A program made the translations under genes and the position numbers. From the NCBI GenBank assembly GCA_963663805.2, contig CAXXMR010000012.1, positions 384,001-448,000 of the forward strand: DNA of 64,000 nucleotides, read 5' to 3'. Shown piece after piece: positions 33,730 through 57,608 of the stretch (position 1 is the first letter of the stretch; every line of letters begins with the position of its first letter). The notes under the pieces are model-generated. The model did no database searches and was not told the DNA's origin. It was given only the letters and a program-made list of their open reading frames with translations. The stretch comes from Sedimentisphaerales bacterium (GTDB lineage: Bacteria > Planctomycetota > Phycisphaerae > Sedimentisphaerales > SM23-30).

Positions 33730-33804
33730 GGTGAGAGTAGCTCAGTCGGCTAGAGCACCAGGTTGTGGTCCTGGGGGTCGCGGGTTCGAGTCCCGTCTCC
33801 CACC
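33730..33804 (+). tRNA. tRNA-His(GUG), integration site of the downstream island
   Basis: G-1:C73; anticodon arm CCAGG-TTGTGGT-CCTGG; GGTTCGAGTCC; A4:C69 mismatch in the acceptor stem. Confidence 0.95.
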
Positions 33805-33996
33805 CTTATATAATCCTATATATAGCAATAGCTTATGCGGGATTTTCTTTGAACTGGACCCGCCAAATTACCCCCAGATGTGAAAATTACTGTGAAAATA
33901 TCTGCTCACTTTTAATCCGGTAAATCCAGATTTGCATAGTGAAACCCTTTTTTGTAGTGTGTCTGTAAAGAGTGCTCAAATATAGGGTTGCAAAAA

Positions 33997-35022
33997 ATGG
34001 CATCATTAAAATATCACAAGGACGTAAAGAGATGGCGAGTCTTCTGGCATGTCACCCTTCCGGACGGCTCAATCGACAAAGGCAGCAGAAGTTTTAAACT
34101 CAAGGATGAGGGGCAAAAGTTCAAGGAGCATTGCGAAAAACAAGGGGCGAAACTAAAAAGAGCCAGGATAGTCAAGGTTCCTCTATTAGACGACGCGGTT
34201 GAGAGTTGGCGGATATTTATGGGCCAGCATACAGAACGAACCCAGAAGATGTACAGTGATGTATTAAGGGATTTCTTAAAATTTGCTTCTAATGACCTTC
34301 TGGCCAGTGACTTAACATCCCAACATATAATGGGGTATTTGAACTCTCTTATAGCTAGAGGCCTGGGCAATAAAAGCGTGAATAATCATTTATGTGCAAT
34401 TAAATCTTTTTGCGGGTATCTGGAAACGAATTACCAGATTCCCAGTTCCGCAAAAAATATTAAGAAATTCAAAGAGGGGGATATTGATGTCTATTTCACC
34501 AATAGAAATGAATACAATCTGATTTTAGAACATTGCGATGATATCGGTGTTGGCTGGATTAGATTTATCGCAAATACTGGCCTGAGGGCGAGCGAGTTTT
34601 GTAATCTGAAATGGGGGGACTATGATGCTGATGCCAGAACCATAACAGTTATTGGCAAGGGCAGAAAAAGAAGGACGATTGGCTTGAATAATATTGCAAT
34701 TACCGTCCTGGAAGACAGGAGAGCGGGCAAGAAGATAAAACTTAAAGACCATATATTTCTTCGCAAAGATGGTTTGCCATTGATTCGCCATACATTGCAT
34801 TATTTTATCTCAAAAGCCTGCTGCGATGCGGGAGTGACGAGTTTTGGCCCTCACACGCTTCGCCACTTTTTTGCTACTGAGCTTCTTAAGGCTGGGATCC
34901 CTATCATCAAGGTTTCTCAACTCATGGGACACAGCAGTGTTACTACTACCCAAAAACATTACTCCCATATCCTCAGCAGCGACGTTGCGAACGCCACCAG
35001 CGTTCTTGAGGCTCTGGGATAG
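33997..35022 (+). CDS. Tyrosine recombinase/integrase
   Basis: TGLRASE (R), GKG (K), HTLRH (HxxR), MGHS, HY catalytic Tyr; N-terminal arm-binding-like segment. Confidence 0.93.
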   Translation: MASLKYHKDVKRWRVFWHVTLPDGSIDKGSRSFKLKDEGQKFKEHCEKQGAKLKRARIVKVPLLDDAVESWRIFMGQHTERTQKMYSDVLRDFLKFASNDLLASDLTSQHIMGYLNSLIARGLGNKSVNNHLCAIKSFCGYLETNYQIPSSAKNIKKFKEGDIDVYFTNRNEYNLILEHCDDIGVGWIRFIANTGLRASEFCNLKWGDYDADARTITVIGKGRKRRTIGLNNIAITVLEDRRAGKKIKLKDHIFLRKDGLPLIRHTLHYFISKACCDAGVTSFGPHTLRHFFATELLKAGIPIIKVSQLMGHSSVTTTQKHYSHILSSDVANATSVLEALG

Positions 35023-35211
35023 TTCGTATTTTTCCATAGCATGACGCTCAAGAACAGCAGTATGCCAGCCTTTTTTACGGGACCATTTGGAGCCATAAGT
35101 GAAATCCGGCAGAGAGCCTTCTTCGATCATTCTATGGATAGTTTTGTCCGAGACATCCATTTGCTCCATCATTTCCGACATAGTAATTATTATTTTATGA
35201 GTTCCTTTCAT
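34810..35211 (-). CDS. Probable excisionase / AlpA-like HTH protein
   Basis: ITMSEMMEQMDVSDKTIHRMIEEGSLP HTH; GGAG RBS; convergent with the integrase and overlapping its 3' end. Confidence 0.7.
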   Translation of the reverse strand: MKGTHKIIITMSEMMEQMDVSDKTIHRMIEEGSLPDFTYGSKWSRKKGWHTAVLERHAMEKYELSQSLKNAGGVRNVAAEDMGVMFLGSSNTAVSHELRNLDDRDPSLKKLSSKKVAKRVRAKTRHSRIAAGF

Positions 35212-35704
35212 TCTTGATATTACTCCAGTTAAAACAACGATTATGGAGTTGATCATAAATAAAACAGAATCACTACTCAATAGCATCTGATTATTTTGTA
35301 ACTAATTTATTGAAAAGAAGTTAGATTGCTTTGGATTGGTTTTTTGAGGGAAATACCCATAGATTAATATATGAATAGTAAGAAAATCCCCAAATCAATC
35401 AAATTGGTCGAAATCAAACAGACGCCTAAAAGTTTGTTCTAATCACGAACAACCTTAAATCATATCCCCACTCTCCAATAGTTAATTGTAATAAAGTAAT
35501 AAGATATTGGAGAGGCAGAATATCAATTTCTGATTCAGAATAAGCTTTATAAGCAAATTAATAAGCCTTAATTGTTCCTTGACAGAAATTAGACATCAGG
35601 ATATTTAAGAATTATTGGTTTCGGGCGGAACCGACCTCTGGCTATCCAAGTCAAACCTAAGCCCTTTTAAAATAATTGTTTATGTTTATTTTAAGGAGCT
35701 TATT

Positions 35705-36028
35705 ATGAGCCAGGGAATTCTCTTTTCTGAACCTTCTATTGCTGAAACTGGGGTCTGGTGCGAGTTAAATCAGGAGATAGATCCTTCTGCATGGGCTTTT
35801 ATTTGTAGAAAAATAGGGAAAATGAGTTATGAGGAGTTCTCCTTATTTGATGCCCTTTTAGATGCCCATTTTAATGCCAAAACTGCCCTTAAAGGGCAAA
35901 TAGAGGCAATAATGGGCATAATTGAGGGGCAAGGGGGAGATTTAAACCGGGAGGATTCTGGGCAGAATATGCCTCTTGTGAGCATTGGACCCAGTGGGAT
36001 GGGAGGGGAATATCAAAAATATATATAG
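35705..36028 (+). CDS. Hypothetical protein
   Basis: AAGGAG RBS before ATG 35705; no recognised motif. Confidence 0.5.
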   Translation: MSQGILFSEPSIAETGVWCELNQEIDPSAWAFICRKIGKMSYEEFSLFDALLDAHFNAKTALKGQIEAIMGIIEGQGGDLNREDSGQNMPLVSIGPSGMGGEYQKYI

Positions 36029-36182
36029 ATTTGATAGGTCTATAAATGCTTTACATATAAATATTTGCGAAATAAAGTAACAGGACTACTAGCATATTTA
36101 GGTTTTTTGCTTGCTTGTGCCCAATTATCGTCTATATTTAAGTGAAATAATAAAGTAGGAGTGTTACTGAAAGTGGTTTTGC

Positions 36183-36758
36183 GTGGTTAAACTATCAGAC
36201 ATTACAAGCATATATTCAGGAATCGTCTTCTGGGGCGAAAAGAAACCCTATGATAATTTCAGGGATTTTCCTGTTGTGCAAGGCAAGGATATTGATGATA
36301 ATAATAGGGTCAATTGGGCACAGTTATCCAGAGCCGTTTTACAACTTAAGAAGCAAGAGCATATTATTCGCCAAGGGGATATCCTGGTCAGGTGTAAGGG
36401 ACTTCCTCATATAGCAGTTCTGGCTGACAGTCCTAAAGAAGATACAGTTGCTGGTTCGCAGTTTTTTGTGGTTAGGGCTAAAAATGATTTAATTTTCCCT
36501 GATTTTCTGGCGTGGTATATGAATCAGTCTCCGGCACAGAGGTATTTAAATCTGTATTCAGCGGGAACCAATATTAAGCATATTAACAAGAAAGTTTTAT
36601 CTGCCCTGGAAGTGGCTGTACCATCATTGGAGATACAGAAGAAAGTAGTGCAGGTGCATAATCTGTGGCAGAAAGAAAACGAAATATTAGAACAGATTAA
36701 ACATAAAAAAGAGCAAGTATTACAATCTCAACTTTTGAATTTAGTTCAGAATAAATAG
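36183..36758 (+). CDS. Half-size (single-TRD) type I restriction specificity subunit
   Basis: VKLSDI, GDILV, PDFLAWYMN, VPSLEIQKKVV HsdS-like motifs; 191 aa. Confidence 0.8.
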   Translation: MVKLSDITSIYSGIVFWGEKKPYDNFRDFPVVQGKDIDDNNRVNWAQLSRAVLQLKKQEHIIRQGDILVRCKGLPHIAVLADSPKEDTVAGSQFFVVRAKNDLIFPDFLAWYMNQSPAQRYLNLYSAGTNIKHINKKVLSALEVAVPSLEIQKKVVQVHNLWQKENEILEQIKHKKEQVLQSQLLNLVQNK

Positions 36759-36766
36759 GAGTAGAT

Positions 36767-38308
36767 ATGACAGCCGACCATAAAATCAATCAGGATGAAA
36801 TAAATGGCATTGCCTGGAAAGCCTGCGATACATTTAGGGGTGTGGTGGATCCAGCCCAATACAAAGATTATATTCTGGTAACTCTGTTCTTGAAATATAT
36901 ATCTGATGTCTGGAATGACCGTAAAACCCAATTTGAAAAGCAATTCAAAGGTGATGAAAAGAGGGTTCAACGCCGACTGGAACGGGAAAGATTTATAATT
37001 CCTGATATCCAAATCAAGAATGAAAAGGGAAAAGTTACCGAAACATTCTCTGCAACCTTTGACAGTCTTTATGAACGCAGAAATGCTCCCAATATCGGTG
37101 AATTAATCAATAATGTCCTGGATGAGATAGAAGAGGCTAACAAATCAAAATTGGAAGGGGTGTTCCGTAACATAGACTTCAATTCTGAAGGTAATCTGGG
37201 TCAAACCAAGGAACGAAATGCCCGCTTGAAGCATTTATTGGAGGATTTTGCGGATAAGAAGTTAGATTTGCGTCCTTCGGTGATAGGTGAACATGATGTA
37301 ATTGGTAATACTTATATGTATCTCATCTCCAGATTTGCTTCGGATTCGGGCAAAAAGGGGGGGGAGTTCTATACACCCACTGAAGTTGCTCTGCTTCTGG
37401 CAAGATTAGTCGAACCCCAGGAGGGAGACCGTATATGTGACCCGGCTTGTGGTTCTGCTTCCTTGTTGGTTCGCTGTGCCAATCTTATTGGCTCTCCGAA
37501 CTATTCTCTCTATGGTCAGGAGTCAAACGGTAGCACCTGGGCATTGGCGAAAATGAACGTATTTCTTAACGAAAAGGATAATGCCCGTATCGAGTGGGGC
37601 GATACCATCCGAAATCCCAAACTGATTGAGAAAGACCAGCTCATGAATTTTGATGTGGTGGTGGCTAATCCTCCGTTTTCGCTGGAAAAATGGGGTATCG
37701 AAGAAGCGGAAAGTGACCGTTATCGGCGTTTCCATAGAGGACTCCCTCCCAAAAGCAAGGGCGATTATGCCTTTATTACCCATATGGTGGAAACCGCCAA
37801 TGAAGACGGCGGCAGAGTAGGGGTGATTGTGCCGCATGGCGTGCTGTTTCGAGGAGGGGCAGAAGGCAGGATAAGAACCCAGTTCATTGATGAGAATATT
37901 CTTGATGCTGTGGTGGGACTGCCGAGCAATCTGTTCTTTGGAACTGGGATACCGGCTGCTATCCTGATATTCAAAAAGAGCAGACGTAAAAAGGATGTGC
38001 TGTTCATCGATGCCAGCAGGGAATTTGAGGATGGTAAGAATCAAAACAGGTTAAGACAACAAGATATCGACAAGGTTTATGAGACTTATAAAAAACGCAA
38101 AGCAATAGACAAATATTCTTATATCGCCAGTATAGAAGAGATTAAGGAGAATGATTATAATCTCAATATTCCCCGTTATGTTGATACCTTTGAAGAGGAA
38201 GAGGAAGTGGATATTCCGGCAGTCAAGAAGGAGATAGCAGGGCTGGAGAAGGAACTGGCAACAGTCCAGAAAGAAATGGATGAGTATCTGAAGGAGTTGG
38301 GTCTGTGA
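36767..38308 (+). CDS. hsdM: Type I R-M methyltransferase subunit
   Basis: GEFYTP, DPACGS, NPPF, PHGVLFRG, YNLNIPRYV. Confidence 0.96.
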   Translation: MTADHKINQDEINGIAWKACDTFRGVVDPAQYKDYILVTLFLKYISDVWNDRKTQFEKQFKGDEKRVQRRLERERFIIPDIQIKNEKGKVTETFSATFDSLYERRNAPNIGELINNVLDEIEEANKSKLEGVFRNIDFNSEGNLGQTKERNARLKHLLEDFADKKLDLRPSVIGEHDVIGNTYMYLISRFASDSGKKGGEFYTPTEVALLLARLVEPQEGDRICDPACGSASLLVRCANLIGSPNYSLYGQESNGSTWALAKMNVFLNEKDNARIEWGDTIRNPKLIEKDQLMNFDVVVANPPFSLEKWGIEEAESDRYRRFHRGLPPKSKGDYAFITHMVETANEDGGRVGVIVPHGVLFRGGAEGRIRTQFIDENILDAVVGLPSNLFFGTGIPAAILIFKKSRRKKDVLFIDASREFEDGKNQNRLRQQDIDKVYETYKKRKAIDKYSYIASIEEIKENDYNLNIPRYVDTFEEEEEVDIPAVKKEIAGLEKELATVQKEMDEYLKELGL

Positions 38309-39525
38309 AGGTTGATCTTGTGCATTACAATAATGCTGCTCTTGGGGATAACCCAAAGGAATGGCAATGTGTCCTTATGGACAAAGTTGCTGAACGTGCT
38401 ACAGGGCATACGCCTAACAAAAAGATAAGTAAATATTGGAATGGAGGGATAAAATGGGTTTCTTTAGCAGACTCAAATAAACTTAATGTGCCGGTAATAT
38501 ATGATACGGCTAAAAACATTAGCGATGAAGGGATAAAGAATTCGTCGGCAAGATATTTGCCAAAGGGGACGGTAATCTTACTACGGGATGCTGCCGTTGG
38601 GAAGGTTACGACGCTTGGGGAAAACATGGCAGTTAGTCAACATTTCGTTGCATGGATATGTGGAGAAAAGCTTCATAACAGATATTTGTACTACCATCTC
38701 TATGGGAGAATGAATGAATTTCAGAGAATAGCGGTAGGATCGACCATTGTCACAATCGGAATGGGATATTTTGCTAAAATGAGAATTCTCCTCCCCCCTC
38801 TTCCCGAACAAAAGAAGATTGCTGCTATATTGGGTAAGTGGGATGAGGGGATTGAAAAGCTGGAGAAGCTGATTACGGCAAAGAAGGCACTTAAAAAGGG
38901 TTTAATGCAGCAACTCCTGACCGGCAAAAAACGGTTTAAGGAGTTCAAGGGGCAGAAGTGGAAAAAGATTGAGTTTGGACATCTTGTTTATTTGTCAAAA
39001 AAGAAATACGACCCTAAAAAAAGTGGATATTCTTTAAGATGTATAGAGCTTGAACATATCAAATCAGAAAATGGACAATTGCTGGGTCACATTAATTCAA
39101 ATCAACAAGCATGTGTAAAGAATTATTTTCAAAAAGGCAACGTTCTTTTTGGAAAATTACGTCCTTACCTCAAAAAATACTATTTAGCCTCTTTTGACGG
39201 AGTGTGCTCAACCGAAATATGGGTATTACAAGCTCTTGAAACGCTTTGTTGTAATCACTTTCTTTTTTATTTAATACAGACCTCGTTTTTTTATCAAGCT
39301 ACTAATGTGACTTCTGGTACAAAGATGCCACGTTCCGACTGGAATTATGTTTCAGAAATTCCGTTTGAGGTCCCATCCTTGGAGGAACAAAAAAAGATTG
39401 CCTCGATTTTAAATGTGGTAGATAACGAGATTGAAATATTAAATCGGAAGCTTGCAGGATTGAAGGAGCAGAAAAAGGGACTGATGCAGAAATTGTTGAC
39501 TGGTAAGATTAGAGTGAAAGTATAA
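38305..39525 (+). CDS. hsdS: Type I R-M specificity subunit
   Basis: Two TRDs with conserved PPLPEQKKIA / PSLEEQKKIA and KKGLMQ.LLTGK segments. Confidence 0.95.
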   Translation: MKVDLVHYNNAALGDNPKEWQCVLMDKVAERATGHTPNKKISKYWNGGIKWVSLADSNKLNVPVIYDTAKNISDEGIKNSSARYLPKGTVILLRDAAVGKVTTLGENMAVSQHFVAWICGEKLHNRYLYYHLYGRMNEFQRIAVGSTIVTIGMGYFAKMRILLPPLPEQKKIAAILGKWDEGIEKLEKLITAKKALKKGLMQQLLTGKKRFKEFKGQKWKKIEFGHLVYLSKKKYDPKKSGYSLRCIELEHIKSENGQLLGHINSNQQACVKNYFQKGNVLFGKLRPYLKKYYLASFDGVCSTEIWVLQALETLCCNHFLFYLIQTSFFYQATNVTSGTKMPRSDWNYVSEIPFEVPSLEEQKKIASILNVVDNEIEILNRKLAGLKEQKKGLMQKLLTGKIRVKV

Positions 39526-53695: not shown

Positions 53696-55084
53696 ATGCA
53701 AAATGTGGCAGTAAAAATCAATCAGATGCACAGCGGTATGGTAAAAAATACCATCGAAACCGCCCGTAAAATCGGCAAGCTCTTATATGATCAAAAAAAG
53801 GCTTGCGGTCATGGCCAGTGGGAAAAGTGGATTGAAAACAATCTCGATTTCAGCAAATCAACAGTAAAAAGATATATGGATGTTTATGAGAAATATCAAA
53901 ATGACAAAAACGTCAAGTTGAAGGATTTGAATCTTAGTGAATTATATAAGGATGTGGCCAATAAGAAAAAAGCGAAACGCACCAATGAGGATCATCGCAG
54001 CAATGACAAAGCCAGAGCAGTAATTAGAGAACTCTTCGCTAATAGGCAGCATGACTATAATAATCCCCCTAAAGGTAAAGTTTTAAATCAGATCATTAAC
54101 GGTGATACTCTTGATATTATGCGTAAGATGAAATCTAATAGTGTTCATCTCATTTGTACCAGTATTCCGTATAATAACAATCTATACTATGGGCCACACT
54201 TTAACGACAACAGGCCTTATCAAGAGTATCTTGATTGGTTGGGTGAATTTGTTACTCTTTGCTATCGAGTATTAGTAAAGGGAGGAAAACTTATAATCAA
54301 TTGCGATAACATGACAAACAAGGATAGAGATAAAAATGGTGAATTTACTTATCGTCATGCCTTAGATTGCGATCTGCGTTATAAGGTTCGAGAGCTTAAG
54401 TTGGGGCTATTAGAATATCAAGATATTATTTGGTATAAGTATAATAATGGTGGAGCTAAAATTAAATGTTGGGGTTCATACGCTTCTCCTTCTCAGCCAA
54501 ATTTTCTTAACTGTAAAGAGCACTTTATAATTTGGGCAAAAGATACATATAAATTAGAGCAGCCAAAAGGAGTTGAAGCTGATATTACAAAAGACGAATT
54601 TGAAGAATGGACTTATAATGTATGGTCCATTCATCCTAACACAAACATTAATTGCCCTCATCCTTGCACTTGGCCAGAACGTCTAACTGAACGTTTTATT
54701 AAACTTTTCAGTTTTCCAAATCAAGTCGTAATGGACCCATTTTGTGGGAGTGGAACAACTAGTTACTCAGCCAAACAGTTGGATAGGCAGTTTATTGGAA
54801 TTGACCAGAATTCAAACTACAGCCAGTGGGCAAAGGATAGAATTGATGGTAAAGATATGACTATGGTTCTTGCTGAATTTCTGTTGAGCGTAAAATCAGA
54901 ATTGGAAAATAAGTTATCGCCTGAATTAGTTGCTAACAAATACGGTCGGTATTTTAGAATGGCAACCCCCGAAGGGGAAAGGTGTAAAGCAAGAGTATCT
55001 AAATCTGAAACATTGAAGAGGGCACAAACCATAAAGAATACAAATACCCTCTCTAAAAAGAAGCAGAGAAAGGAGGTAGCTTAA
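53696..55084 (+). CDS. Orphan beta-class N4/N6 DNA methyltransferase with DUF3102-like N-terminus
   Basis: IGKLL...GHGQWEKWIE...RYM N domain; TSIPY (motif IV variant) precedes HP..WP and DPFCGSGTT (motif I). Confidence 0.88.
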   Translation: MQNVAVKINQMHSGMVKNTIETARKIGKLLYDQKKACGHGQWEKWIENNLDFSKSTVKRYMDVYEKYQNDKNVKLKDLNLSELYKDVANKKKAKRTNEDHRSNDKARAVIRELFANRQHDYNNPPKGKVLNQIINGDTLDIMRKMKSNSVHLICTSIPYNNNLYYGPHFNDNRPYQEYLDWLGEFVTLCYRVLVKGGKLIINCDNMTNKDRDKNGEFTYRHALDCDLRYKVRELKLGLLEYQDIIWYKYNNGGAKIKCWGSYASPSQPNFLNCKEHFIIWAKDTYKLEQPKGVEADITKDEFEEWTYNVWSIHPNTNINCPHPCTWPERLTERFIKLFSFPNQVVMDPFCGSGTTSYSAKQLDRQFIGIDQNSNYSQWAKDRIDGKDMTMVLAEFLLSVKSELENKLSPELVANKYGRYFRMATPEGERCKARVSKSETLKRAQTIKNTNTLSKKKQRKEVA

Positions 55085-55637: not shown

Positions 55638-55692
55638 TATTAATTATAACTAACATATACTCACAGCAAACGTTTCGTAGTGTTTTATATTT

Positions 55693-55731
55693 AGTCAGAG
55701 CATTGGCGATATTTCCGATGCTCTGACTTTG
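55693..55731 (+). terminator. 14-bp hairpin, probable terminator
   Basis: AGTCAGAGCATTGG-N8-CCGATGCTCTGACT then TT. Confidence 0.5.
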
Positions 55732-55784
55732 ATGAGAAGTGCTTTAAACTTTTTTCATAAAAACTTTATCTTCTATTTTTTTTG

Positions 55785-55813
55785 TTGGAAAGTGATTAAT
55801 TTTCTGATAGAAT
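55785..55813 (+). promoter_or_regulatory. sigma70-like promoter P1 upstream of the solitary repeat unit
   Basis: TTGGAA-N17-TAGAAT. Confidence 0.55.
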
Positions 55814-55842
55814 ACTCGAAGTCAGGGGTAAACAACTTCTGA

Positions 55843-55874
55843 CATTCTCAACTGATAGTTGAGTGGGTTGAAAT
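55843..55874 (+). CRISPR. Solitary CRISPR-repeat-like unit (I-C-like geometry)
   Basis: CATT-CTCAACT-GAT-AGTTGAG-TGGGTTGAAAT: 7-bp stem + 11-nt 3' handle. Confidence 0.6.
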
Positions 55875-56035
55875 ATTATAATTATCCAGATGAATTTACA
55901 GTATAATATTTTAGTGCTGTTGAACGATGCTCTCTGAAAAGTGAATAATATAAAATAGTCATTAATATTTTATATCTTATTTTTGGATACGAGTTCTAAG
56001 AAAATGTCAAATCATACATTGGACTCATTTTTTCC

Positions 56036-56064
56036 TTGAAAAGTGAAATACATTTTAGTATAGT
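56036..56064 (+). promoter_or_regulatory. sigma70-like promoter P2 upstream of the hairpin/repeat cassette
   Basis: TTGAAA-N17-TATAGT. Confidence 0.6.
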
Positions 56065-56099
56065 AATGTAAGAATAAAAGTTAATATGAGTTTGTTGAG

Positions 56100-56219
56100 T
56101 TGAGTGTTTGCAGTGTGTTCCATCCTGAAGTAAATTATCATGGTAATCATCAATTATTGATGGGATACAGATAGTTTTCTTGATACACCTTCAGTGTGGG
56201 ATACACTGCGAACACTCAA
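56100..56219 (+). ncRNA. Long stem-loop (putative structured RNA element)
   Basis: TTGAGTGTTTGCAGTGTGTTCCA pairs with TGGGATACACTGCGAACACTCAA (23 bp, 3 G-U); inner CTGAAG/CTTCAG and CATCAA/TTGATG stems. Confidence 0.6.
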
Positions 56220-56258
56220 GAAGTTCCTGTAGAATTTGCTATGTATATAGCAAAGATC

Positions 56259-56343
56259 AGTTTCCCCACGCAAGTGGGGGTGTTCCTATATTAGGATGTG
56301 CCAGGGTTTTAGCAAAACAGTGTCCCCACGTTAGTGGGGTGTT
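56259..56343 (+). CRISPR. Type I-E-like mini-array (repeat-spacer-repeat), no cas genes in window
   Basis: AGTTT-CCCCAC-GCAA-GTGGGG-GTGTTCCT, 31-nt spacer, AGTGT-CCCCAC-GTTA-GTGGGG-TGTT; period 60. Confidence 0.78.
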
Positions 56344-56346
56344 AGA

Positions 56347-56516
56347 TTAACATCTATTATAGATGTTTGGGTTGAAACGAATGTGTTTGTATTGCTTGAG
56401 TTAAATACTTAAGTATCTTAGCCATTAAGGTTAAGTGGATTACAGTGATAGTAGTATTACTATGTTTAAACTTAATGTTTAGGCATCTCAGTCTTTGAGA
56501 TTGAGTGGATTACAAT
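56347..56516 (+). CRISPR. Three degenerate I-C-like repeat units with ~35-nt spacers
   Basis: 7-bp stem / 5-nt loop / 11-nt handle ending at 56378 (TGGGTTGAAAC), 56446 (TGGATTACAGT) and 56516 (TGGATTACAAT); periods 68 and 70. Confidence 0.68.
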
Positions 56517-56553
56517 GCTGTAGTGATTGTTGAGTTTGCTAAACTTGGCAGAA

Positions 56554-56590
56554 GAAGCCATCAGATTAATTTCTGGTGGCTTTTTTGTTT
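56554..56590 (+). terminator. Intrinsic terminator closing the repeat cassette
   Basis: GAAGCCATCAGA-TTAATT-TCTGGTGGCTT followed by TTTTGTTT. Confidence 0.8.
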
Positions 56591-56742
56591 TATATTCCTT
56601 GAGCAAAATATTTTAAAATTATCCTCAAAAGGGGCTGATTAGTGAAAAACAAATAATTAAAATATAAGCATGATCAGGAGTAATTGGGTTATTGCTGACA
56701 CAAAAATAATAAAAAGTTCTCATTTTAAAGGAGATTGAGATA

Positions 56743-57099
56743 ATGAATGAGTTTAAATGTGAAGAATGTGGCTCAATTAAACTGGGCTATAAAAAGTATG
56801 TAAAATGCACTATGCCAGTTGAGATTGCTAATGGGCAAATCACCTATGGGCTATCAACAGTTGATGAAGATAATTATTTGGCCACATGTAATGGATTTTG
56901 CTGTATGGACTGTCAAAGTTTGATCGAATACTGTGGCTGTAACCTTGAAACAGAGGAAGAGCTTAGGGGATATTATAACCTGGATCCAAAATTAAAACAA
57001 CAGCAGCAAGATGAATATGATGATATTATTAAGGCTAAAATTGAGGCTCAGGAAGAACTGGGTCGAGATAAGTTATTATATGAAGAAGAATCCGTTTAA
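56743..57099 (+). CDS. Small Cys-rich (Zn-ribbon-like), acidic hypothetical protein
   Basis: AAGGAG RBS; CEECGS and CCMDC motifs. Confidence 0.7.
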   Translation: MNEFKCEECGSIKLGYKKYVKCTMPVEIANGQITYGLSTVDEDNYLATCNGFCCMDCQSLIEYCGCNLETEEELRGYYNLDPKLKQQQQDEYDDIIKAKIEAQEELGRDKLLYEEESV

Positions 57100-57308
57100 A
57101 TATTTCCCGGCAAAAAAGGAATTTTCTTATTTTTATCGAATATATATATGAACAGAGTGTAGGCTGAGTTGTAATGTTGGCAGCAAGAAAACCAAGACGA
57201 AATTTTAAGAAAGAATATATGATGAATTAATCAGAAGTAACAATCTGGTTTTCTTGCTTTTACCCTGTGTGGCTACACCTGCACAGGGTTTTTATTTTGG
57301 TAAATATA

Positions 57309-57608
57309 ATGGTTTTAATCAAAATTAATACATTAGTTGAATACACTAATCCTGAGCAAAGTAAAGTTTTTTTGCGGATTTTAACTGAATTATATTATGA
57401 TGCTTTTCCTTTCTTTAACAAAGAAGAGATATCAGCTGATATAATCAATATCCAACATCCTGCGGATGTAGGATATTTCGCGGTGACCAGCAGAGCTGTC
57501 CCCCGCGATTTATTCTACTTCGGATTTATTTCAGGAATATTATTATTTCAACATTTTCATTTATACATACGAGCAAAGCGAGTTCTTCTACAAAATATAA
57601 TAACCTGA
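57309..57608 (+). CDS. Possible small hypothetical protein
   Basis: 99-codon ORF after the terminator at 57262-57293; weak RBS. Confidence 0.3.
   Translation: MVLIKINTLVEYTNPEQSKVFLRILTELYYDAFPFFNKEEISADIINIQHPADVGYFAVTSRAVPRDLFYFGFISGILLFQHFHLYIRAKRVLLQNIIT

Follow-up and report, generated by a model that had tools for sequence, protein, structure and literature searches.

We analysed a 64,000-nucleotide (nt) stretch of the genome of a Sedimentisphaerales bacterium (G000:C12:384001-448000, hereafter the window) and found at 55785–56590, with all features on the plus strand, a cassette of short units that imitate the repeats of two subtypes of CRISPR (short palindromic repeats, clustered and regularly interspaced) system, I-E and I-C. 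The units mimic real repeats, recur at repeat-like spacing on one strand, and keep their stems through compensatory changes; the last unit and the terminator are conserved between two islands of the genome, in which no cognate cas genes were found. Set against the available parts of the published descriptions, the best reading is a CRISPR RNA (crRNA)-mimic cassette of the kind of RNA anti-CRISPRs (Racrs) or of the viral crRNA-like regulatory RNAs called Cracrs, which mixes subtypes and is in this unlike published arrays. We give a chance of about one in two to the more specific proposal that it engages foreign Cascade (CRISPR-associated complex for antiviral defence) systems in Racr-like competition.

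Type I-C-like units

Four units in the window (A1, U2, U3 and U4; Table 1) and two on another contig of the genome, C13, share one geometry, a 7–8-bp stem that ends directly before the TGG of an 11-nt handle. The four handles start at 55864, 56368, 56436 and 56506 and have 1, 1, 3 and 2 mismatches to TGGATTGAAAY, respectively, and the closing stem pair is C-G in A1, U3 and U4. Across the whole genome (9.5 million positions, both strands), only nine places had a hairpin of 6 bp or more together with a handle of no more than one mismatch; three were cassette units and the other six were unrelated. The repeats differ among one another in stem sequence. When five units were aligned, all stem cells paired (35/35), compensatory changes were present in six of the seven pairs, and the covariation score was reached by none of 500 shuffles.

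A covariance model built from five cassette units (R1) retrieved only the six known units from its own genome at an expectation value (E) of 1 or less. Applied unfiltered to 17 loci, R1 gave 146 matches, of which 129, counted from the table, were full-length, in-register repeats in nine real I-C array loci, and none fell in the five I-E array loci; the remainder were 14 weak matches in one locus (L047), two in another (L054) and one stray. Of 201 genomes from the host's class, 20 carry real I-C arrays, as do 9 of 19 from a neighbouring family, and one of these arrays stands behind a complete cas3-cas5c-cas8c-cas7-cas4-cas1c-cas2 operon. The class I-C repeats all read GTCGC...GCGTGGATTGAAAC, from which the cassette differs by its AT-rich stems and its handle. 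A scan of genome contigs for paired TGGATTACAA gave at least 118 loci; among the matches listed almost all were chance or coding repeats and three were true arrays, none of I-C type. A sequence-only reading of the window had described one and then three I-C-like repeats in the cassette, and both the genome-wide rarity of the handle-hairpin combination and the recovery of real I-C repeats by R1 bear this out. Judged by sequence, the I-C likeness is real in geometry and handle and less so in stem sequence.

The cassette handles are of two variants, TGGGTTGAAAY and TGGATTACAAY, matched at 11 of 11 and 10 of 11 positions, and both are present in genuine arrays on viral contigs. Paired copies of TGGGTTGAAAY occurred in 26 viral-contig loci; some of these are arrays of typical I-C form, with 15, 9, 7 and 3 repeats, and several others are two-repeat mini-arrays whose period is 66 nt. 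For TGGATTACAAY, pairs of GTGGATTACAR were found in nine loci, including arrays of 25, 14 and 18 repeats reading GTCTCTCATAGTAATATGAGAGTGGATTACAAC. The 25-repeat array lies on a phage contig with an HK97 capsid gene (L239, G431:C1:33000-47200; also L230/L233/L235) and its handle has TGGATTACAAC in place of TGGATTGAAAC. Upstream of it on the same strand are encoded a Cas5c-like protein, proteins of 652 and 125 amino acids (aa), a Csd2-like Cas7 and a Cas3. The Cas5c-like protein and the Cas7 score below the curated cut-offs, and the 14 kb examined showed no Cas1, Cas2, Cas4 or Cas6. We assign the TGGATTACAAY handle to a divergent phage-borne I-C-like system. U4 and the L239-type array repeat are identical at 23 of 32 positions, including 13 of 13 for GAGTGGATTACAA.

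Two further groups of loci were observed in IMG/VR. Recurrent two-repeat mini-arrays of I-C type with a period of 66–68 nt (L204, L210, L213, L214, L220, L227, L212 and L207) have repeats that differ slightly in the loop and carry the handle TGGGTTGAAAT; they probably belong to a known viral mini-array or Cracr class. Eleven phage loci (L191–L201) encode an RNA that runs from a promoter to a terminator and in which a longer stem, whose 3′ arm abuts TGGATTGAAAT or, in L195, TGGGTTGAAAT, encloses a GC tetraloop hairpin. The nested hairpin is CCCCGC-GTAA-GCGGGG in most members of one group and CCCCAC-GTTA-GTGGGG, the very 16-mer of the cassette unit IE-2, in a second group. No Rfam family was found for these RNAs, and the GC hairpin of one group was generic-looking by BLAST.

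Type I-E-like units

Two I-E-like units, IE-1 and IE-2, have their cores at 56264–79 and 56324–39, 60 nt apart, a spacing that fits I-E. IE-1 (AGTTTCCCCACGCAAGTGGGGGTGTTCC) matched 54 plasmid records at 152 places. All three of the records that were examined, from Enterobacter asburiae, Klebsiella pneumoniae and Fructilactobacillus sanfranciscensis, held arrays with a 61–62-nt period, each on the strand of an annotated I-E operon and just downstream of it, with repeats reading GTCTTCCCCACGCACGTGGGGGTGTTTC and GTATTCCCCACGCATGTGGGGGTGATCC, to each of which IE-1 is identical at 23 of 28 positions. Among 400 other genomes of the host's class, 14 have arrays of the repeat class of IE-1, not counting seven more in which there was a single match. 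A pattern search of the whole host genome allowing up to two mismatches to the I-E-like core gave only three other places, none of them periodic. The segment between the two units is homologous to the sequence ahead of IE-1, and the pair therefore arose by tandem duplication. The I-E-like repeat-spacer-repeat of the sequence-only reading thus holds when set against real arrays that neighbour annotated I-E cas operons, and we regard the likeness, as far as sequence comparison goes, as real.

Layout of the cassette

The cassette reads as two promoter-led parts that end at one terminator (Table 1). P1 is followed by the 12-bp hairpin and unit A1; P2 is followed by the 120-nt stem-loop, an AT hairpin, IE-1, 31 nt, IE-2, 9 nt, U2, U3, U4, the 34-nt tail and the terminator. 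P1 and P2 are paralogues whose likeness takes in a T-tract, the -35 region and an upstream element. The number of promoter-like sites was not above chance (9, compared with 7.4 ± 2.8 in shuffles). The terminator stem (56551–56586) is strong and belongs to the only plus-strand terminator of the region. The AT-only hairpin at 55948–55984 is possibly a weak terminator of the P1 unit, to judge from its form; a terminator scan that needs three G-C pairs did not call it.

The RNA fold of the region was far more stable than those of shuffles (z -11.8), and the folding energy was -193 kcal/mol for the plus strand compared with -133 kcal/mol for the minus strand, the plus strand folding much better because many of its pairs are G.U. 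The spacer-like segments are homologous to one another (repeat families D1 and D4), which shows that the array was extended through tandem duplication. The cassette region gave no Rfam family above threshold, and the 120-nt stem-loop in particular had no Rfam match. Two other roles for this stem-loop were considered and dropped: as a repeat:anti-repeat mimic, its 5′ arm gave no array-like BLAST match, and as a single-strand promoter, its -35 hexamer is unpaired in the fold.

The overall plus-strand order proposed by the sequence-only reading, with a promoter, a hairpin and one I-C-like repeat and then a second promoter, a stem-loop, an I-E-like pair, three I-C-like repeats and a terminator, agrees with this layout, and two of its measures needed revision. 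The terminator stem begins 34 nt after the last unit, where 37 nt had been given, and the handles of U2 to U4 are spaced by 68 and 70 nt, which makes the spacer-like segments 36–38 nt long rather than about 35 nt.

Table 1. Features of the cassette and of the surrounding island, in window coordinates
Feature	Position	Strand	Remark
Tyrosine integrase gene	33988–35022		adjoins tRNA-His at island start
Orphan DUF3102 + N6_N4 DNA methylase gene	53696–55084		island gene next to cassette
P1, sigma-70-like promoter site, TTGGAA-17-TAGAAT with TG	55785–55813	+	99.5% conserved in second island
5′ hairpin, 12-bp stem	55818–55847	+	at predicted P1 transcript start
A1, I-C-like unit, 7-bp stem CTCAACT/AGTTGAG, then TGGGTTGAAAT	55845–55874	+	handle identical to natural arrays on viral contigs
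AT-only 10-bp hairpin, then CTTATTTTT	55948–55984	+	
P2, promoter-like site, TTGAAA-17-TATAGT	56036–56064	+	10/12
120-nt stem-loop	56100–56219	+	31-nt arms 84% complementary; all arm mismatches G.U on plus strand
IE-1, I-E-like mimic, CCCCAC GCAA GTGGGG, then GTGTTCC	56259–56287	+	23/28 identical to real I-E repeats
31-nt spacer-like segment between IE-1 and IE-2	56288–56318	+	homologous to sequence ahead of IE-1; not unusually structured
IE-2, degenerate I-E-like unit, CCCCAC GTTA GTGGGG, then TGTTAGAT	56319–56346	+	one G shorter
U2, I-C-like unit, 8-bp stem, then TGGGTTGAAAC	56347–56378	+	
Spacer-like segment 1, own 9-bp hairpin	56379–56414	+	z -3.2; 4/300 shuffles fold as well
U3, I-C-like unit, 7-bp stem, then TGGATTACAGT	56415–56446	+	
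Spacer-like segment 2, two hairpins	56447–56484	+	z -3.6; 2/300 shuffles fold as well
U4, I-C-like unit, 8-bp stem, then TGGATTACAAT	56485–56516	+	33/33 identical in second island
34-nt tail in guide position after U4	56517–56550	+	diverged between islands
Intrinsic terminator, 15-bp stem and T run	56551–56590	+	

A second version in the same genome

A second low-GC island, on contig C13, carries genes of a type I restriction-modification system, TIR/SEFIR and HipA genes and integrases. It shares with the window a module of about 6 kb at 99.5% identity, inside which the cassette is the variable spot. The C13 cassette is a short form with two units, consisting of P1, the hairpin, A1, 25 other nt, U4, the tail and the terminator, and window positions 55884–56484 are absent from it. 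In a segment with an overall identity of 83%, the two islands agree at every position of U4 (33/33) and of the terminator (35/35), an argument that both are under constraint. The intervening tail, 34 nt long in one island and 40 nt in the other, agrees at about half of its positions and is either relaxed or diversifying. The structural conservation in related islands that the sequence-only reading had called for was thus found in the one island available for comparison, a paralogue in the same genome.

In contigs assembled from three public runs of one study, the long and short forms coexist. These contigs also showed a third sequence context ahead of 56600 and, at 56671–56807, in the region of a 118-aa open reading frame (ORF), a variant with eight differences, which hints at further versions of the module in the same samples. 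Searches farther afield returned no cassette: blastn of the region against plasmids and phages gave nothing at E ≤ 1e-3, blastn in the genomes of 60 relatives gave only two chance-level matches of 22–33 nt, and pattern scans had no matches for A1 with U4 in viral contigs or for U4 with the terminator in metagenomes.

CRISPR-Cas content of the genome and target searches

In the host genome, which is 88% complete, no Cas1, Cse1 or Cas5 was found, nor any homologue of the I-C-like proteins of the phage contig L239, and PADLOC matched no Cas model among 15 ORFs of the island. A search for Csd1 also gave no match and was uninformative, as it gave none in control genomes either. Other members of the host's class often carry I-E or I-C systems. 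A genome scan showed a single CRISPR array, whose 36-nt repeat is unrelated and which is part of a type VI-B locus on contig C10. The earlier label "Cas-less" therefore fits the cassette insofar as no matching type I cas genes were found, and has to be qualified by the type VI-B locus that the genome carries on this other contig.

The type VI-B locus (C10, about 34300–38600; L011 8300–12600) encodes Csx28 and has six 36-nt repeats after Cas13b. Its Cas13b is distributed over three consecutive ORFs of 213, 347 and 409 aa, which cover model positions 8–180, 191–507 and 695–1065 and reflect either a broken gene or assembly errors. Because the genome shows no SusD, this Cas13b lies outside the usual Bacteroidota. 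A placement of the host in Bacteroidota, which Cas13b would suggest, was rejected for the lack of SusD; the host's 16S gene is only 75–79% identical to the E. coli one.

The spacer-like segments had no target in their own genome. Part of the tail (56523–56539) agreed at 16 of 17 nt with an insertion sequence that is present in at least 10 identical copies (e.g. C12:284144-284160 and C30:42861-42877), and the match was judged to be chance multiplied by copy number. In a small sample of cas-upstream loci from relatives in the class (eight I-C and seven I-E), the best target scores were within those of shuffles, and in small samples of phage and plasmid collections all matches to the I-C part had E ≥ 2. 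Matches of spacers to related mobile elements, as expected of a mini-array, were not seen.

Genomic setting

GC content drops from about 50% to about 35% between tRNA-His (33731–33805) and about 60.2 kb, which defines the extent of the island. The integrase at the tRNA-His and the low GC content support the earlier assignment to an integrative element, and the orphan methylase named in that assignment was confirmed beside the cassette. The other island genes include a type I restriction-modification system, a DinB-like polymerase and small ORFs without a family match. The cassette is intergenic, on a mobile element and outside any CRISPR-Cas locus. It lies within 55638–56742, a stretch of 1105 nt that, as had been claimed, is the longest of the island without ORFs, at each of three cut-offs (60, 80 and 100 aa).

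The small ORFs had also been called anti-defence-like, for which we found no support, the small neighbours being orphans with no family match. An upstream ORF of 141 aa had five homologues among 5.8 billion proteins, none of which could be placed on genome, metagenome or viral contigs, and its predicted fold (mean predicted local distance difference test score, 46) was too poor for a structure search. The 118-aa ORF (56743–57099), directly 3′ of the cassette and absent from the C13 island, is cysteine-rich with an acidic tail and had no homologue among the same 5.8 billion proteins; an accessory part in counter-defence is conceivable for it.

Two non-coding elements lie close by. Just past the cassette terminator, a 50-nt element (56620–56670) is identical at 47 of 50 positions in both islands, its flanks being diverged. 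It holds a minus-strand promoter-like site (TTCACT, 17 nt, GATAAT) directed back into the cassette and may be an antisense promoter or operator. Farther on, a small structured unit at 57150–57297, kept in both islands, has a 13-bp closing stem (GCAAGAAAACCA.../...TGGTTTTCTTGC) followed by a GC-rich terminator with a T run. Since this terminator overlaps the start of a 113-aa ORF (57267–57608), that start is doubtful.

Comparison with known systems

The comparisons in this section draw on the available parts of the papers cited. Racrs are solitary repeat units, of which I-C and I-E examples have been validated (Camara-Wilpert et al. 2023, PMC10651486). The cassette resembles them as an intergenic repeat look-alike on a mobile element, outside a CRISPR-Cas locus, with its own promoter and terminator, which are here predicted. 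It differs in having six to eight units in array-like spacing, not one, in putting two subtypes side by side, and in lying on a chromosomal island rather than on a phage or plasmid, in a host without cognate systems and with no known acr gene beside it. SRUFinder counts a repeat as solitary when it has no association with other (partial) repeats (PMC10651486); the cassette units recur at 60 and 68–70 nt, and only A1 stands alone, in the long form.

Cracr arrays are viral crRNA-like regulatory RNAs with stacked units (bioRxiv 10.1101/2024.10.29.618823). They share with the cassette the stacking of degenerate repeat, spacer-like segment and repeat in one transcription unit, I-C and I-E examples and a tolerance of small repeat defects. 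Whereas the RNAs of one Cracr array always address the same type or subtype (10.1101/2024.10.29.618823), the cassette mixes I-E and I-C units 9 nt apart with no terminator between them; moreover, no cas-promoter match was found for it in the 15 sampled cas-upstream loci, and its spacer-like parts are duplicated and self-paired. Viral mini-arrays without cas genes act against related viruses, with repeats identical to those of the host and spacers that match the related viruses (PMC11656645). The cassette is like them in carrying one to few repeat-spacer units on a mobile element without cas genes, but its repeats match no array exactly and no protospacer was found.

The two-repeat I-C mini-arrays and composite handle RNAs of IMG/VR share with the cassette the TGGGTTGAAAY handle, the 66-nt period and slightly unequal repeats, and some of them share the order of the P1 unit, namely promoter, 5′ hairpin, stem and handle. 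They differ in their GC-rich stems with a GTC start, and none of those examined carries a convincing I-E unit. A genuine I-E or I-C array would have near-identical repeats, unrelated spacers and adjacent cas genes and leader; here the stems differ, the spacers are homologous and cas genes are absent. Full-text literature searches on RNA anti-CRISPRs and crRNA-like RNAs returned no report of mixed-subtype units; the supplementary tables of the Racr and Cracr papers may list mixed loci.

Possible functions

Under the decoy reading, the locus would make one or two highly structured plus-strand RNAs that imitate the precursor crRNAs of foreign type I systems, carrying two I-E-like and four I-C-like units, the latter with two handle variants. 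In a cell with an I-E or I-C system, such as a new host of the island, Cas6e (I-E) or Cas5c (I-C) would bind these RNAs and cut them at the base of each hairpin. Cascade subunits would go on to assemble around the non-targeting products, and Cas proteins would be drawn off the real crRNAs, so that the island would be protected, much as Racr RNAs and, in their competition arm, Cracr arrays work. That P1 and P2 drive transcription, that the RNA is processed and that it binds and inhibits Cas proteins are all predictions from the cassette's likeness to such RNAs. No target and no outside homologue were found, and the Racr-like function is put forward as an inference. A fuller version, which we hold tentatively and at somewhat less than even odds, is that three stacked repeat classes (I-E, I-C with TGGGTTGAAAY and phage-type I-C-like with TGGATTACAAY) form a broad-spectrum RNA countermeasure against several Cascades, which would grow by tandem duplication and module swapping instead of Cas1-Cas2 acquisition and whose self-paired, non-guide spacers would keep loaded complexes harmless.

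Several observations weigh against the decoy reading. The genome has neither an I-E nor an I-C system, while most Racr elements, in the available parts of PMC10651486, sit in subtype-matched hosts. The cassette stems are AT-rich and lack the GTCGC...GCG base of all real class I-C repeats, BLAST of unit A1 gave no array, the U3 handle has three mismatches, the phage array with the TGGATTACAAC handle was not matched by R1 at E ≤ 0.01, and IE-2 is degenerate, with its stem kept, one G lost and a weaker handle. Strong self-pairing of the I-C spacer-like parts might hinder Cascade assembly. Finally, no homologue of the cassette was found outside its own genome, and the comparative evidence is internal to that genome.

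The main rival to the decoy reading is that the units are guides, which would be loaded into a host Cascade and steer it to the promoter of a cas or toxin gene, as Cracr or other crRNA-like RNAs do, or to a competing mobile element, as mini-arrays do. Such a role would suit the full crRNA dimensions of the units, each with a handle, 31–38 nt and the next hairpin and the last with a handle, 34 nt and the terminator hairpin; it would also suit the tail, which occupies the guide position and is the most diverged part between the islands, the flanking unit and terminator being identical, and arrays of such design are described in the Cracr preprint as far as it was available (10.1101/2024.10.29.618823). 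The absence of a target in the own genome, in the 15 cas-upstream loci and in the small phage and plasmid samples speaks against guides, as do spacer-like parts that are duplicates of one another, two of them strongly self-paired, and we consider this role rather unlikely.

The remaining explanations are less likely. The string of hairpins, which extends to the spacer-like parts and the unexplained 120-nt stem-loop, could belong to a structured regulatory or protein-sponging RNA or to a single-strand DNA element (promoter or origin), with the CRISPR likeness a matter of ancestry or coincidence, and phage RNAs do have a generic-looking GC hairpin nested in a stem before an I-C handle. Yet IE-1 matches true I-E repeats over the stem, two T before it and 7 nt after it, the handles match natural variants almost or entirely, the spacing equals that of real arrays, and the unpaired -35 hexamer makes the long stem-loop unfit as a single-strand promoter; we therefore rate this explanation as improbable. 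Slightly lower still we place the view that the island formerly held CRISPR arrays along with cas genes and that the cassette is what is left of these arrays as they decay, with no present function. Repeats that are degenerate and unlike one another, a base lost from IE-2, the absence of cas genes and an expression that is only predicted would all be expected of a relic, but the head-to-tail packing of two unrelated subtypes between duplicated promoters and a single terminator would not, nor would stem pairing kept through compensatory changes, the perfect conservation of U4 and the terminator in a diverged background, or "spacers" that come from duplication and not from acquisition.

The sequence-only reading had proposed a decoy or guide cassette for at least two Cascade subtypes. 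The I-E and I-C likeness, the mixed layout and the mobile position on which it was built all stand, and its appeal to anti-defence-like neighbours falls away.

RNA anti-CRISPRs and crRNA-like hijackers are recent discoveries, so far described as single-subtype devices of phages and a few plasmids. If the decoy reading is true, a single transcript can combine RNA mimicry of several subtypes, the strategy extends to chromosomal islands, and such loci diversify quickly, as the long and short versions in one genome would illustrate. If the cassette is inert, it shows that repeat-like units can persist and duplicate without cas genes. The cassette also supplies compact RNAs with which the inhibition or re-programming of two widely used type I systems can be tested directly.

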